Source: an uncultured Solirubrobacteraceae bacterium
GTDB lineage: Bacteria; Actinomycetota; Thermoleophilia; Solirubrobacterales; Solirubrobacteraceae
Assembly: GCA_963779605.1 (NCBI GenBank)
Contig: CAVZYR010000003.1
Coordinates: forward strand, 1,011,377-1,075,376
Direction: 5' to 3'
DNA length: 64,000 nucleotides
Positions 4,915 through 48,196 of the stretch are shown here, in pieces (position 1 is the first letter of the stretch; every line of letters starts with the position of its first letter). Below the pieces are notes generated by a model. The model saw only the letters and a program-made list of their open reading frames with translations, ran no database searches and had not been told where the DNA came from. Made by a program: the position numbers and the translations under genes.

Positions 4915-6321
4915 TCAGCTCCAGTCTCGGATGTCGGTGAAGTGCCCCTCGATGGCCGCGGCGGCGGCCATCTGCGGCGAGACGAGATGGGTGCGCCCAC
5001 CGCGGCCCTGACGGCCCTCGAAGTTGCGGTTGGACGTGGACGCGCAGCGCTCCCCCGGCTTGAGGATGTCGGGGTTCATGCCCAGGCACATCGAGCATCC
5101 GGCCACGCGCCAGTCGAAGCCGGCGTCGCGGAAGATGTGATCGAGGCCCTCGGCCTCGGCCTGGGCCTTGACCTGCTGGGAGCCGGGCACGACCATCGCG
5201 TTGACGGTCGCGGCGACTCTGCGACCGGCGACGACCTCCGCGGCGGCACGCAGGTCGCCGATGCGCGAGTTGGTGCAGGAGCCGATGAACACGCGGTCGA
5301 TCTCGATCTGCTCGATCGGCGTGCCCGGCTCGAGCGCCATGTAGTGCAGCGCCCGTTCGGTCGCCTCGCGGTCGGCGGGGGTGTCGAAGTCATCGGGCGA
5401 GGGCACGCTGTCGGTGACCGAGCGGACCATCCCGGGGTTGGTGCCCCAGGTGACCTGGGGAGAGATGGCGGCGGCGTCGATCACGACGTCGGTGTCGAAC
5501 TCCGCGCCGTCGTCCGTGCGCAGCGTGCGCCACTGCTCGATCGCGGCGTCGAGCTCGGCGCCCTTCGGCGCACCGGGACGCTCCACCTCTGAAAACCACG
5601 CGAACGTCGTCTGGTCGGGGGCGATCATGCCCGCGCGCCCGCCGCCCTCGATGGTCATGTTGCAGACCGTCATCCGGCCCTCCATCGACAGCGCCTCGAT
5701 CGCCGGCCCCGAGTACTCGACGACGTGGCCGGTCAGCCCGCCCACGCCCAGCTGCCCGAGGGTGCCGAGGATGAGGTCCTTGGCGGTGACGCCAAAGCCG
5801 AGCTCGCCCTCGTAGCGGATGCGCATCGAGCGCGGCTTGTTTTGGACCATGCACTGCGTTGCCAGCACGTGCTCGACCTCGCTCGTGCCGATGCCGAAGG
5901 CGAGCGCGCCGAAGGCGCCGTGCGTCGATGTGTGCGAGTCCCCGCAGACGATCGTCATGCCGGGCTGGGTGACGCCGAGCTCGGGACCGATCACGTGCAC
6001 GATGCCCTGGCGCTCGGAGCCCAGCGAGTAGACGGGGATGGCGAACTCCTCGCAGTTGCGCTCGAGCGTTTCGACCTGAACGCGCGAAAGCTCGTCCTTG
6101 ATACGTGCCGCCACGGGCGTGCCGTCGGTCGGCGTGTTGTGGTCGGCCGTCGCCAGCGTGCGATCCGGGCGGCGCACGGCGCGGCCGGCCAGCCGCAGCC
6201 CGTCGAATGCCTGCGGGCTCGTCACCTCATGGACGAGGTGCAGGTCGACGTAGAGGAGGTTGGGCGGGCCCGAATCAACCTCGTGGGCCTCCCAGATCTT
6301 GTCGAACATCGTGTTTGGCAT
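4915..6321 (-). CDS. leuC: 3-isopropylmalate dehydratase large subunit
   Basis: [55 protein letters not shown]. Confidence 0.97.
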
Positions 6322-6987
6322 CTAGCTTCTCCTCAGTCCCGCGGAGACGACCGCCAGCAAGGCCGCCTCCTTCGTCGTGGGGTTCTCGAAATGGTGGGGC
6401 AGGTCGGCGTCGAAGGTGACGCAGTCGCCCTCGCTCAGCTCGTGTCGCTCGGCGTCGCACACGAGCACCACCGAGCCGCGCTCGACGAGCGCCGTCTCGC
6501 GGCTTCCGGGCTCGTGCATCGGGGGGTCATCGGCGGCGCCCGTGGCGCCGCCGGGAGCGAGCGTGTGACGCGACAGCTCGGCGCGCTGGCCGGGCTGGGA
6601 GGAGGTCATCACCTCGAACTGATGCCCGCGGCGCCTGTTCCCCCCGCGCTGGCGCTCGTCGGCCCTGACGATCGTCACCGCTCCGTCCTCGTCCAGGCGC
6701 AGAAGCTGCGACAGCCGCAGCTCGAGCCCAGCGGCGATGCGGTTGGCCACGGTCAGCGTCGGGCTGGTCTCGCCGCGCTCGACCTGGGAGAGCATCGGAG
6801 CGCTCACCCCGGAGCGAACCGCCAGATCGCGCAGCGACAGCGATGAGGCCTCACGCAGAGCCTTGACCCGCGCCCCGATGACGACGGGGTCAAGCGGGTC
6901 CACTCGAGGGACGGCTGCGGACTCCCCGCGCGGCGCACGCGTGCTCGGCTCGGCCCTCTTCCGCTTGGGAGGAGTCTGGACTGGCAT
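6322..6987 (-). CDS. XRE-family HTH transcriptional regulator with C-terminal cupin domain
   Basis: N-terminal HTH (LSLRDLAVRSGVSAPMLSQVERGETSPTL) and cupin motifs (HEPGSRE, GDCVTFDADLPHHFEN). Start taken at ATG 6987 (MPVQTP); the stop abuts the leuC ATG. Confidence 0.88.
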   Translation of the reverse strand: MPVQTPPKRKRAEPSTRAPRGESAAVPRVDPLDPVVIGARVKALREASSLSLRDLAVRSGVSAPMLSQVERGETSPTLTVANRIAAGLELRLSQLLRLDEDGAVTIVRADERQRGGNRRRGHQFEVMTSSQPGQRAELSRHTLAPGGATGAADDPPMHEPGSRETALVERGSVVLVCDAERHELSEGDCVTFDADLPHHFENPTTKEAALLAVVSAGLRRS

Positions 6988-16254: not shown

Positions 16255-19220
<2,966 letters not shown>

Positions 19221-42969: not shown

Positions 42970-43920
42970 TCAGGGCGCGAAGAAGGCCTGCGAGACGTAG
43001 CGCTCGCCGGAGTCCGGCATGACCACCACGATCCGCTTGTCCCTGGACTCGGGACGGGCGGCGACTTGAAGCGATGCCCACAACGCCGCTCCCCCGGAGA
43101 TCCCGGCGAGCAGGCCCACGCGGCGGGCGCAGCTCCAGGCGGTCTGGACGGCGTCGTCGTCGGATACGGCCACCACCTCGTCGAGCAGCTCGCGGTTCAG
43201 CACCGGCGGCACGAACCCGGCGCCGATCCCCTGGATGCGGTGCGGACCGGTCTGCCCGCCGGAGAGCACCGCCGAGCCGAGCGGCTCCACCGCGACCACA
43301 TGCAGCTTCGGGTTGCGCTCGCGCAGATACTCGCCCACCCCGGTGATCGTGCCACCGGTCCCCACGCCGGCGACCAGCACGTCGACGCGGCCATCGAGCG
43401 CGCGCTCGATCTCCGGTCCCGTCGTCCGCCGGTGGACCTCCGGGTTGGCGGGATTCGAGAACTGGTCGGGCAGGAACGTGTCACCCTCCCGCGCCATCGC
43501 GCGCGCAGCCTCGACCGCCTCTCCCATGCCGCCGAGCGACTCGGTGACATCCACCCGCGCGCCGTACAGCCGCAGCAGGCTCTCACGCTCCCGGCTCATG
43601 CCCTGGGGCAGCGTCAGCACCAGCTCATAGCCCTTGGCGGCGCACACGAACGCGAGCGCGATCCCCGTATTGCCGCTCGTCGCCTCCACGATCCTCGTGC
43701 GCCCCGGCTCGATCCTTTCTTCGGCCTCGGCCGCCTCGATCATCGCGACGCCGATGCGGTCCTTGACGCTTCCCCCCGGGTTGAACGCCTCGAGCTTGGC
43801 GAATAGCTCAACCCCATTGGCCGCCGCGGCCGTGGCGTCGAGCATCCGCGGAAGCCCGACCAGCGGAGTGCTCCCGACGAGTTCCGCAATGTTGATCGGG
43901 ATTTCTGCCATAGACGCCAC
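42970..43920 (-). CDS. cysK: Cysteine synthase A
   Basis: AKLEAFNPGGSVKDR, EATSGNTGIALA, GVGTGGT, HRIQGIG, PDSGERY; start could also be ATG 43911. Confidence 0.96.
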   Translation of the reverse strand: MASMAEIPINIAELVGSTPLVGLPRMLDATAAAANGVELFAKLEAFNPGGSVKDRIGVAMIEAAEAEERIEPGRTRIVEATSGNTGIALAFVCAAKGYELVLTLPQGMSRERESLLRLYGARVDVTESLGGMGEAVEAARAMAREGDTFLPDQFSNPANPEVHRRTTGPEIERALDGRVDVLVAGVGTGGTITGVGEYLRERNPKLHVVAVEPLGSAVLSGGQTGPHRIQGIGAGFVPPVLNRELLDEVVAVSDDDAVQTAWSCARRVGLLAGISGGAALWASLQVAARPESRDKRIVVVMPDSGERYVSQAFFAP

Positions 43921-44025
43921 GACAATAGTGGGCCAGGCGGGCGCGCGCGATTCGGAAGGGCCGCCGGCGCATGCATGGCCGCCGGGCGGCCCAGCACACG
44001 GCGGTGGAGACGCTCCGCCGGCGCA

Positions 44026-44529
44026 TCACCAGCTGCTCTGCTGGCCACCTGCGCAGCCGGTCTTGGTGATCGGGCTCGTGCAGCTGCGGGTGATTTCGCC
44101 GTTGGCGCTCCTGGCGATCGTGAATTCGTCGCCGGTGGCCGCTTTCGTCGTCACCGAGTATTCGCTCTTGGCGCTCGTGGTGGCGCTCAGGTAGGCCACG
44201 CTCGTGTTCGTGGTGATGGGGATCGAGGGCTCGTACCTGTTCAGTTCGGCCGCATTCACCTTCGCGTATTCGCCGCTGTTGTCGGTCGCGATCGTCTCGG
44301 CCGTGGTCTCGGCGGCGCGGGCGAGCGCCTTGGCCTGCGCGTCGTTTGCCTTGCCCTTCTGCCCGGCGAAGGCGGGGATCGCGATCGCCGCGAGAATGCC
44401 GATGATCAGGATCGCGACGAGCAACTCGATCAGCGAGTAGCCAGCGGCGTCGGTGAGGCGCTCACGCGTGCGCCCGGGACCGTTCAGCTCGATGCGGGCG
44501 CTTGACTGCTGGGAAACCTTTGAAAACAC
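44026..44529 (-). CDS. Type IV pilin (prepilin with class III signal peptide)
   Basis: ...LTDAAG|YSLIELLVAILIIGILAAIAIPAF with Glu at +5; C-terminal Cys pair (SC...GC); GGAGG RBS before the GTG. Confidence 0.9.
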   Translation of the reverse strand: MFSKVSQQSSARIELNGPGRTRERLTDAAGYSLIELLVAILIIGILAAIAIPAFAGQKGKANDAQAKALARAAETTAETIATDNSGEYAKVNAAELNRYEPSIPITTNTSVAYLSATTSAKSEYSVTTKAATGDEFTIARSANGEITRSCTSPITKTGCAGGQQSSW

Positions 44530-44549
44530 GATAGCCCTCCGTAGCGTCT

Positions 44550-44627
44550 CGCTGGCGGCCGAGCTATCTCGTGTCGAGATCCCTGACTTTGCGCCGTCAC
44601 CTCACGGTGAGTTTGCCTCTTTCAGCG
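44550..44627 (-). promoter_or_regulatory. c-di-GMP-I (GEMM-I) riboswitch
   Basis: Minus strand CGCTG-AAAGA-GGCAAAC-TCACC-GTGA-GGTGA-C-GGCGCAAAG-TCAGGGATCTC-GACAC-GAGATAGC-TCGGCCGC-CAGCG: P1 CGCTG/CAGCG, GNRA-capped P2, GGCAAAC and CGCAAAG cores, P3 stem. Confidence 0.88.
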
Positions 44628-44716
44628 TGTTTGGTTGTCCGAGTCCCGCACTGTGCAGCACCGATGCGCTCCTGTGAAGCGCAGGTCTCACATTGCAAGA
44701 GAAATGGACGGATGTA

Positions 44717-45001
44717 CTAGCGCGCCGACAGGGCGGCGGCGGGGAGCCGACCGCCACCGACATGGCGGCGGTCGGGGATCAGTGCGGCGAGGGGTGCGAC
44801 CACGAGCCGGCGGTCGACCGCCGCGAGCTAGGAAATCGGCACGCTCGTGCCGACGACCGCAACCTCCGGTCCGAGCTGGCGACACTCGACGACGAGCCTC
44901 TCGGATTCGGCGTCCCATGCGGTCAGCATGTCCACGATCGCCTTCGGCAGGGCGTGAATGCCCGCGGGTTGCGTCTCTGACTGAGCGATTGAGTGCTCCA
45001 T
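44717..45001 (-). pseudogene. Possible degraded small ORF (MEHSIAQ...) with an in-frame TAG at 44828-44830
   Basis: GGGGAGG upstream; the frame stays open past the TAG to a second TAG at 44717; no recognisable motif. Confidence 0.25.
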
Positions 45002-46996: not shown

Positions 46997-48196
46997 CTAC
47001 AGCCAGCCGCGCTCGGTCGCCATCAGCACGGCCTGGGCGCGATCGACGGCACCGAGCTTTCCGTAGATGTTGTGCAGGTGCGTACGCACGGTGCTCGTCG
47101 AGAGGGTGAGCTCGTGGGCTATCTGCTTGTAGACCTTGCCTTCGGCGAGCCTCTGCAGCACGCCGAGCTCGCGTCCGGAGAGCGGGCACGGGTCGACGTG
47201 ACGGCGACGCTGGCTGGGTGAGCTGGGCAGTTCGTACATCACCCGCCTCAGCTCCTCGGCGCCGAGACCGACGGCGCGTGCGGACTTGAGCATCTCCGCG
47301 GGTGAAACCTGGCCGCCCTGCTCGTAGTGGGCGAGCATGTCCGCCAGGCGGATGACCGCGGCCTCGCCCTCCACATCGTGATTGTGGTGGCGCTCGATGA
47401 CCGTGGCGATCGTCGCCGGAAGCCCCCAGCGGCGGGTCAGCACGCCGCCCACGAGCGCGTGATCCACACCGAGCTCCCTGCGCTCCTGATGGATGCGCTC
47501 CTCGGGCGTCCTCGCGCCGCGGTGCACCTGGGAGGGGTAGCCCGGGTAGGCGTGGAGCAGCACGAGCTTGCCGATGTCGTGCAGCAGGCTCGTGACGGTG
47601 AGGCGATCGCGATGCTCGGAGTCGACCTCGGCGGCGATGCGATCGGCCGCGTGCTGTGTCGCGAGCGCGTGCAGGCGGAAGCGCTCGGGCGCCGCGTCCC
47701 AGACGCTCGCGCGCTCGAAGAAGTTGAACGTGCCCACGCGGCCCGCCAGCGCCTCCACGGCGGGCGCGGACAGGAGCTCGACGCCGCGGGCGACGGTGTC
47801 GACGCGTCCGCGACCGCCGGGAACGCGGTTGGCGAGACGCAGGACAGCGATGATCAGAGCCACGTCGGACTCGACCGCGGTGACGATCTCGGCCGTCGCG
47901 ACATGCTCTTTGGAGGTGACGGCAAGCAGGCGGTTGCGCGACTCCGCCAGGGCGGGGTAGGCCTCGAGCGCTTCAAAGGCGGCCGTCAGGCGGCGCCCGT
48001 GGCCCTCGTTCTGGTGTCGCTCACCGGAGACCTGGCGCTCGGTGGTGGGCGCGGGCTGGGGGTGCTTCGGGACGAGCGCCTCGGCAGATCCCTTGCGGGG
48101 AGCCGTCGCCGCGGATCCGTTGAGAGCGCGCCCGGCGCTTGCTTTGCTGCTTGCTTTTCTGGTGCTTGGCTTGGGTTTTGAGACTGTCGCCGGCAT
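46997..48196 (-). CDS. HDOD-domain protein with C-terminal LuxR-type HTH
   Basis: ESDVALIIAVLRLAN, LLHDIGK, GVDHALVGGVLTRRWGLP; then LSGRELGVLQRLAEG...IAHELTLSTSTVRTHLHNIYGKLG. Confidence 0.88.
   Translation of the reverse strand: MPATVSKPKPSTRKASSKASAGRALNGSAATAPRKGSAEALVPKHPQPAPTTERQVSGERHQNEGHGRRLTAAFEALEAYPALAESRNRLLAVTSKEHVATAEIVTAVESDVALIIAVLRLANRVPGGRGRVDTVARGVELLSAPAVEALAGRVGTFNFFERASVWDAAPERFRLHALATQHAADRIAAEVDSEHRDRLTVTSLLHDIGKLVLLHAYPGYPSQVHRGARTPEERIHQERRELGVDHALVGGVLTRRWGLPATIATVIERHHNHDVEGEAAVIRLADMLAHYEQGGQVSPAEMLKSARAVGLGAEELRRVMYELPSSPSQRRRHVDPCPLSGRELGVLQRLAEGKVYKQIAHELTLSTSTVRTHLHNIYGKLGAVDRAQAVLMATERGWL

Follow-up and report, generated by a model that had tools for sequence, protein, structure and literature searches.

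Does an RNA sensor for cyclic di-GMP (c-di-GMP) govern a type IV pilin gene in a deep-branching actinobacterium, and if so, by what mechanism and in which direction? The question is raised by a 64,000-nucleotide (nt) stretch of contig CAVZYR010000003.1 from an uncultured Solirubrobacteraceae bacterium, hereafter the window. An initial annotation made from its letters had placed a c-di-GMP-I riboswitch directly upstream of an orphan pilin gene, and had proposed a translational switch controlling an alternative pilin. We consider it likely that the element is a functional GEMM-I riboswitch in the leader of an orphan, monocistronic gene for a type IVa-like prepilin, most probably working as a translational ON switch.

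A c-di-GMP-I aptamer ahead of a prepilin gene

An Rfam scan (cmscan) of the whole window at curated thresholds returned two matches, one to the ZMP/ZTP riboswitch family and one to the c-di-GMP-I family, RF01051, at 44551..44627 on the minus strand. The latter reaches 45.7 bits where the gathering score is 35 (E = 9.8e-06, a value that refers to the 64 kb window against 4227 families) and covers the model end to end (positions 1-87 of 87); all core elements are in place, as the initial annotation had stated. A covariance model built from six Rfam-validated sequences (R1) gives the window aptamer 92.1 bits and found no second copy in the 64 kb. The aptamer, its helices and the gene that it precedes are as follows.

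44550..44627, minus strand: c-di-GMP-I aptamer (RF01051 match, model R1 and base-by-base pair check)
44627-44623 with 44554-44550, minus strand: P1, every pair checked base by base
G44616-C44591 and C44615-G44592, minus strand: GC clamp, checked base by base
44597..44610, minus strand: P2 (P1a) hairpin UCACC-GUGA-GGUGA, 44610-44606 with 44601-44597, with a GYRA-type GNRA tetraloop
44558..44587, minus strand: P3 (P1b) hairpin GUC-A-GGGAUCUCG / CGAGAU-AG-CUCGGC, 44587-44575 with 44571-44558
44535..44540, minus strand: Shine-Dalgarno GGAGGG, read from the sequence, with a 5-nt spacer to the GTG
44026..44529, minus strand: prepilin gene, 167 amino acids, GTG start, PF07963 and TIGR02532 above their cut-offs

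As RNA, the GC-rich, 78-nt aptamer reads CGCUG-AAAGA-G-GC-AAA-C-UCACC-GUGA-GGUGA-C-GGC-GC-AAA-GUC-A-GGGAUCUCG-ACA-CGAGAU-AG-CUC-GGC-C-G-C-CAGCG. Its first hairpin, GC-AAA-(C)UCACC-GUGA-GGUGA(C)-GGC-GC-AAA-G, has the published GEMM arrangement: stems of 2 bp and 5-6 bp with an internal loop of 3 nt, a GNRA tetraloop, and AAA as the linker that leads to the second hairpin (PMC1950547). P3 runs as an uninterrupted helix and lacks the 11-nt tetraloop receptor; this fits, because P2 ends in a GUGA loop and GEMM RNAs with a GYRA loop on the first hairpin lack the receptor according to the original description (PMC1950547).

Alignment to the consensus structures of RF01051 and RF03167 identifies the equivalents of three positions of the Vc2 aptamer: G20 is G44617, unpaired and immediately 5' of the clamp; A47 is A44590, the first base past the clamp; and C92 is C44555, unpaired between P3 and P1. 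The same letters are found in all strong homologues. In Vc2, G20 reads the Hoogsteen face of one ligand guanine and C92 forms a Watson-Crick pair with the other, and relatives that sense cGAMP (3',3'-cyclic GMP-AMP) have A at position 20 (PMC6140456). Since the three equivalents are G, A and C, the predicted ligand is c-di-GMP and not cGAMP, as had been proposed from G20 at the outset. Identity as a cGAMP riboswitch (GEMM-Ib) was rejected, as the defining A at position 20 is absent and G stands there in the window and in all strong homologues. The c-di-GMP-I-GGC variant was likewise rejected, the RF03167 score of 46.2 bits being below that family's gathering score of 59 and the window having GCAAAG where the family has GCGAA. 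Every computationally checkable feature of a class I c-di-GMP riboswitch is present, and we assign the element to that class (GEMM-I), from which we infer that it binds c-di-GMP.

One observation bears on annotation more generally. A canonical aptamer in a related genome (L007:5199-5282; L-numbers denote fetched loci), in which the A47 equivalent is A, scores 60.9 bits with RF03167, above the gathering score. As RF03167 scores these two canonical aptamers, that of the window and that of L007, at least as high as RF01051, GC-rich canonical aptamers could be mislabelled as the GGC variant by automatic annotation.

Directly downstream, as annotated, is a pilin gene. The GTG at 44529 is the first possible start past an in-frame stop, and the 3' strand of P1 ends at 44550, 20 nt ahead of it, in agreement with the distance first given. 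The product scores 28.5 bits with PF07963 (N_methyl; cut-off 21.2) and 26.4 bits with TIGR02532 (cut-off 16.3). A prepilin leader of 30 amino acids (MFSKVS...DAAG) precedes the cleavage motif G30|YSLIE35LLV, which has Glu at +5 and Tyr in place of the usual Phe at +1; G30, E35, Cys150 and Cys159 are invariant in an alignment of 34 homologues (A1). A downstream start giving a short leader, like that of the type B units described below, was rejected: from 44529 to the cleavage site the frame contains no other ATG, GTG or TTG, and relatives share the conserved N-terminus MF(S/A)KV. The family has 2296 detectable homologues, mostly from soil metagenomes and many of them named PilA by the Joint Genome Institute, and its profile matches solved type IVa pilins over the N-terminal helix only (best Geobacter PilA-N, E 1.5e-15). 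An AlphaFold model (mean confidence, pLDDT, 80.6) has a helix at residues 33-83 followed by a small beta-sheet of four to five strands. Because Foldseek gave no significant PDB match to this model (best E 0.55), the pilin call rests on sequence motifs and profiles, by which the gene product is a type IVa-like prepilin. A 3' terminator was not seen in the intergenic region 43921-44035, which folds like its shuffles (z = -0.03).

The aptamer is conserved well beyond the window. Genome loci amounting to 920 kb were collected through pilin matches (the best 80 of 192 genome matches), and in 19 of the Solirubrobacterales-type loci R1 detected another 23 strong matches (50-88 bits), with eight additional ones in other contigs. 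A scan of metagenome contigs, where the matches listed are mostly distant pilins, gave at least three full aptamers (L092, L094, L100). In the homologue alignment, compensatory changes occur at 19 of the 25 aptamer pairs, including all six pairs of P2 and nine of the 12 of P3, and 93.4% of cells are paired. None of 500 shuffles matched the observed pairing and covariation, and sliding the partners by one to three columns left only 34-48% paired; the alignment was fitted to the covariance model, which favours pairing, and the margin is large. Counted over the order, related aptamers precede homologous pilins at about 25 further Solirubrobacterales loci. A prepilin cleavage motif lies 93-124 nt past the aptamer in all 26 aptamers examined, the window's included, and the pilin structural gene is thus the preferred target of this riboswitch in the order. 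At about a dozen pilin loci no aptamer was detectable, and a BLAST comparison of the leader with plasmids gave no match.

A competing hairpin over the ribosome-binding site

Outside the ligand-bound fold, the same RNA has a second structure available to it.

44525..44575, minus strand: alternative 'sequestor' hairpin of 51 nt, in the minimum-free-energy and centroid folds

The initial annotation had noticed that the 3' strand of P1 can form AGCG-AGA-CGCT next to the ribosome-binding site and had suggested a translational switch. That pairing is indeed present (AGCG 44553-44550 with CGCU 44546-44543, AGA loop) and the platform is supported, but it proves to be the tip of a far larger structure, which covers both the Shine-Dalgarno and the GUG and so implies an ON switch. 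Below the tip, 44558-44556 pair with 44541-44539 (CCG/CGG), 44566-44561 with 44537-44532 (UAGCUC/GGGCUA, taking up the GGG of the Shine-Dalgarno and the spacer) and 44575-44569 with 44531-44525 (GACACGA/UCGUGUU, with the GUG inside). The hairpin takes its 5' arm from the 3' half of P3 together with P1's 3' strand, so that it and the two helices are mutually exclusive. Folded alone it has -23.4 kcal/mol (z = -3.24), and none of 200 shuffles was as stable. The minimum-free-energy structure of the whole leader contains the sequestor and not P3 or P1, and the pairing probability of the Shine-Dalgarno in the unconstrained ensemble is about 1. The leader is computed at -40.9 kcal/mol when free and -31.4 kcal/mol with the aptamer enforced, a gap of 9.5 kcal/mol that would be within reach of picomolar-to-nanomolar ligand binding together with tertiary contacts.

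We refer to the arrangement seen in the window, in which a long leader peptide goes with an aptamer that ends 16-22 nt ahead of the Shine-Dalgarno, as type A. Thirteen sequences share it, at different genomic loci and with pilin identities of 53-87%. An equivalent hairpin is predicted in all 13, and the strict GAUAGCUC/GGGCUAUC pairing is kept in 12, the remaining one (L171) having GGGCGAAUC. The spacer between Shine-Dalgarno and start, which in general varies freely, is nearly invariant in type A (GGGCUAUC). A U.G pair of the sequestor is replaced by C-G in L086, and L002 has a UUG start and a different P3 loop that nevertheless still pairs with the start codon.

These structures suggest the following cycle. 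As long as no ligand is bound, the Shine-Dalgarno, the spacer and the GUG would be paired with P1's 3' strand and with the 3' half of P3, and initiation would be blocked. Binding of c-di-GMP at the P1/P2/P3 junction (G44617, A44590, C44555) would lock P1 and P3; the hairpin's 3' arm, on which the Shine-Dalgarno and the GUG lie, would be freed, and the pilin could be translated. The predicted logic is ON because the ligand must hold the 5' arm of the hairpin in P3 and P1. At high c-di-GMP, the cell would in this way provide one more pilin for a type IV pilus machine whose genes lie elsewhere.

Several points weigh against this reading. The sequestor helix is backed by conservation and consistent pairing, not by true double compensatory change, since the function of the aptamer freezes its aptamer-side strand. 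When the aptamer is enforced, GGAGG still pairs weakly (about -8 kcal/mol) with UUUCC in codons 5-6, and release of the ribosome-binding site may be partial; this pairing is not conserved among relatives. A UUUU run directly follows the hairpin in 10 of the 13 relatives, and part of the effect could be transcription termination. Finally, that this genome encodes a pilus machine and a prepilin peptidase is an assumption, our view being limited to 64 kb.

The U run leads to the strongest competing explanation, in which the same aptamer acts mainly on transcription: the 51-nt hairpin and UUUU would form an intrinsic or Rho-assisted terminator at the start of the open reading frame (ORF) when ligand is absent, and the switch would still be ON. 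UUUUC adjoins the stem, GUGUUU[UG]C is conserved in 10 of the 13 type A relatives, where the U run may explain a conserved Phe2 codon, and a terminator that competes against the second hairpin's 3' side is the most frequent GEMM platform (PMC1950547). We regard it as unlikely that termination predominates, however: a terminator scan of 43900-45000 was negative, as only four U are present, and three relatives (L086, L173, L003) are without the U run and retain the Shine-Dalgarno pairing. A pure terminator, moreover, need not engulf the Shine-Dalgarno and the start codon, and Actinomycetota reportedly tend to use translational platforms (PMC12452182).

That the RNA senses something else, be it 3',3'-cGAMP, some other dinucleotide or whatever the c-di-GMP-I-GGC variant binds, is improbable. 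RF03167 does score marginally ahead of RF01051 on the window (46.2 against 45.7 bits in E-value mode, at 44550-44626 on the minus strand), and single-base changes have retuned the fold in known cases (PMC6140456), but the former score is far under the gathering score, the position that defines the variant is A and not G, and position 20 is G in the window and in every strong homologue. We give still less credence to an evolutionary relic that no longer regulates, or to an ORF product that is not an assembled pilus subunit, readings to which the isolation of the pilin among housekeeping genes, the Tyr at +1 and the globular domain without a significant Foldseek match would lend themselves. Aptamer, platform and pilin (G-1, E+5, C150/C159) are conserved together at different loci and at protein identities as low as 53%, and the aptamer is intact at both syntenic loci, those with 87% (L082) and 67% (L169) pilin identity. 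A c-di-GMP-responsive switch acting chiefly on translation is the reading that we retain.

Orphan, cluster and paralogue pilins in the order

About 55 ORFs that together cover the window were compared with Pfam; no pilus-assembly gene was among them, nor any for a prepilin peptidase or for the assembly ATPase or platform, and a six-frame motif scan found a single prepilin motif, that of the 44026..44529 pilin. Within the window the pilin is therefore an orphan, as first described. The closest genome loci among the matches listed all come from metagenome-assembled genomes labelled Solirubrobacteraceae or Solirubrobacterales (Thermoleophilia, Actinomycetota), in keeping with the deep-branching actinobacterial host that had been proposed. 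L082 and L169 share the locus order of the window (Rrf2 ... pilin-cysK-cysE), and four other members of the pilin family occur at unrelated loci; no pilus machinery was found near any of these six relatives.

A second architecture, type B, has a spacer of 55-70 nt, a Shine-Dalgarno within GGAUCC-UAGGAGGAUC and a short leader, MLxKLRRR. Its units sit inside type IVa pilus clusters of Solirubrobacterales genomes. In L041 the order is PilB (T2SSE and MshEN domains), PilT, PilC, an O-methyltransferase, two riboswitch-pilins and PilD; in L024 a pilin is followed by a 501-amino-acid N_methyl protein, PilD and PilM. The lineage thus has a pilus machine, since PilB, PilT, PilC, PilD and PilM are encoded in such clusters. 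The PilB of L041 (L041:607-2409) carries an MshEN domain, a known c-di-GMP-binding module. Tandem pilins with an aptamer each are found at L041:5827-7297 (a nearly identical pair), L019:5822-7203, L007:3582-6447 and L028:4485-7264.

These clusters bear on the suggestion that the orphan is a switchable alternative pilin. Its orphan status holds, but a choice between pilins is not shown: when other pilins were checked for the same RNA, aptamers were found ahead of PilB-PilT-PilC-PilD cluster pilins in other genomes of the order. With this aptamer class also ahead of cluster pilins in related genomes, co-induction and pilin choice are equally likely.

Pilin paralogues in the order are preceded by a smaller GEMM-like element of about 62 nt (for example AGUGCCGAGGUGCUUUGGCAGAGCAUUCGAAAGAGUGCGUAGCAAAGCCGGCGGCUCUCGAAAG), which was seen at least 18 times, across 12 genome loci and five metagenome contigs.

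Mini elements: L021:176-239, L033:5835-5898 and 6670-6733, L012:4297-4358, L035:5858-5921
Further mini elements: L005, L008, L010, L011, L017, L020, L027, L040, L087, L093, L095, L098, L101

The mini element retains P1, the clamp, P2, the AAA linker and the G20/A47/C92 equivalents, and P3 is reduced to a palindrome without a loop, GCC|GGC (GCCGGC). It scores 26.7 bits with RF01051, below threshold, and has compensatory pairs in P1 (three) and P2 (five). Its conserved downstream part consists of GGGGGACGC, an AUCGCC/GGCGAU hairpin and GGGCUGGCGCC. At L033:5835-7000, tandem pilins each have a mini element of their own. Three candidate replacements for P3 could not be established: an outer helix GCCAG/CUGGC and a start-region helix GCUGGCGC/GCGCCAGC, neither of which ever varies, and an alternative helix CUCUCG/CGAGGG, which is 81.5% paired.

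The pilin classes also differ in what lies upstream. Ahead of the window aptamer we found two candidate elements.

44705..44720, minus strand: conserved motif CTAGTACATCCGTCCA, 15 nt, about 187 nt ahead of the start codon
44650..44678, minus strand: putative sigma-70-like promoter, -35 TTCACA (44678-44673), 17-nt spacer, -10 CACAGT (44655-44650)

Both hexamers of the putative promoter and their spacing are conserved in the type A upstream alignment, and they imply a transcription start near 44643; a consensus scan of 43900-45000 for promoters and terminators gave no sites, the putative promoter falling below its threshold. The pattern T[AC]G[TA]ACAT.CGTC has 13 occurrences in the 1.18 Mb of fetched loci, all upstream of type A pilins at the same distance, and occurs once in the window. 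The positions of the CTAGTACATCCGTCCA motif, which include unrelated loci, are L082:9811, L169:9814, L084:9818, L086:9814, L167:9816, L168:9838, L002:5746, L003:5798, L050:5757 and L172:1338; it could serve as a binding site for a regulator or mark an alternative start of transcription. A WhiG-type pattern, TAAA-N14-17-[GC][CT]CGAT, lies 16-29 nt upstream of 13 of the 23 type B aptamers and 11 of the 18 mini elements (WhiG/FliA-type matches are seen, for example, at L013:~5775-5800 and L041:~5785-5810), and upstream of none of the 14 type A units, the window included. Judged by this pattern, the orphan pilin seems to be uncoupled from the WhiG regulon with its RNA sensor kept. The WhiG-type promoters ahead of cluster pilins, taken with published work on RsiG-WhiG in Rubrobacter, suggest a twofold action of c-di-GMP on pilin supply, on transcription through RsiG-WhiG and on translation through the riboswitch.

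A broader and speculative reading, which we think doubtful, is that c-di-GMP sets the composition of the Solirubrobacterales pilus through RNA, with three differently wired pilin classes in the order: cluster pilins with a WhiG-type promoter and a canonical aptamer, paralogues with a WhiG-type promoter and a mini element, and orphans with another promoter and a translational ON platform. If this were true, with different c-di-GMP thresholds or opposite sign, the cell would choose among pilins by its c-di-GMP level, and the mini element would be a new minimal two-helix aptamer for c-di-GMP or a related ligand.

The neighbours of the window pilin are housekeeping genes: leuA, ilvE, leuBCD, Ku, LigD, serA, ilvC, menaquinone genes, ilvBN, gatAB, folD, uvrD, cysE, cysK, two SnoaL-like genes, Rrf2, HDOD-LuxR, gltX, dnaE, arg genes and pheT. 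The HDOD-HD and LuxR/GerE regulator (46997-48196, minus strand) lies 2.5 kb upstream of the pilin and is syntenic in L082 and L169; its connection to the pilin is one of shared position only. Near some other copies of the pilin we observed c-di-GMP signalling genes of the GGDEF/HD-GYP and EAL kinds, namely those for a GGDEF-HD_5 protein and an HD_5 protein (L084:13508-16213) and a PAS-EAL protein (L172:1-2). The second Rfam match in the window, the ZMP/ZTP riboswitch RF01750 (19142-19223, minus strand; 61.6 bits against a gathering score of 39), sits ahead of genes for a class V aminotransferase (17919-19082) and a serA-like D-3-phosphoglycerate dehydrogenase (16255-17922). ZMP/ZTP riboswitches usually have purine or folate genes as targets; here the partners are serine-pathway genes.

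Comparison with known systems

To our knowledge, Thermoleophilia are abundant but barely cultured soil actinobacteria in which type IVa pili are unstudied. The occurrence of such a riboswitch in this host had been called notable; the lineage is new, but the surprise is smaller than supposed, as precedents have been published. GEMM RNAs were linked to pilus genes in 2007, in a survey whose hosts were delta- and gamma-proteobacteria, Firmicutes and Planctomycetes (PMC1950547). The type IV pili of Actinobacteria studied so far are of the Flp/Tad type (PMC6916266). No report of such riboswitch control of a pilin in Thermoleophilia was found in the literature searched, an absence there that is not proof.

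The window element resembles Vc2 and the RF01051 family in its three-helix aptamer, the G20/A47/C92 positions, the GC clamp, the AAA linker, the GNRA-capped P2, its 5' regulatory position and a competing structure that uses the 3' side of the second hairpin. It differs from them in its Thermoleophilia-type host, a short P3 without receptor and a GUGA loop, a platform that sequesters the Shine-Dalgarno and start in place of a classical terminator, and a pilin subunit as target. In Geobacter, the pilM GEMM-Ib RNA is a cGAMP ON switch (PMC10118264); fold, predicted sign and association with pilus genes are shared with the window (PMC10118264, PMC1950547), whereas the Geobacter RNA has A at position 20, senses cGAMP, works through a transcriptional terminator and controls assembly genes.

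In C. difficile, the type IV pilus cluster (pilA1) is under a class II c-di-GMP riboswitch (PMC11477304). This too is a c-di-GMP RNA ahead of the major pilin of a monoderm type IVa pilus, with c-di-GMP promoting pili (PMC11477304; PMC6916266); its aptamer, however, has an unrelated fold and serves a whole pil cluster, in contrast to the class I aptamer and lone pilin of the window. In Rubrobacter, a member of the sister class to Thermoleophilia, c-di-GMP controls type IV pili, the pil genes have WhiG-type promoters (TAAA ... GCCGATAA), and a single-motif RsiG has been reported in Thermoleophilia (PMC8325347). Rubrobacter thus offers c-di-GMP control of type IV pili in a deep actinobacterial lineage, with the same promoter type as the cluster riboswitch-pilins of Solirubrobacterales. 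There a protein anti-sigma factor acts on transcription, whereas the window pilin has no WhiG-type promoter, as is true of type A throughout, and an RNA sensor.

Against this background, understanding of how this riboswitch class works is unchanged, and RNA-based c-di-GMP sensing is extended to Thermoleophilia. The short aptamer and simple platform could serve as a c-di-GMP sensor in high-GC hosts. What is new relative to the known systems is the host lineage, the consistent targeting of pilin subunits, the platform that sequesters the ribosome-binding site and the orphan context.

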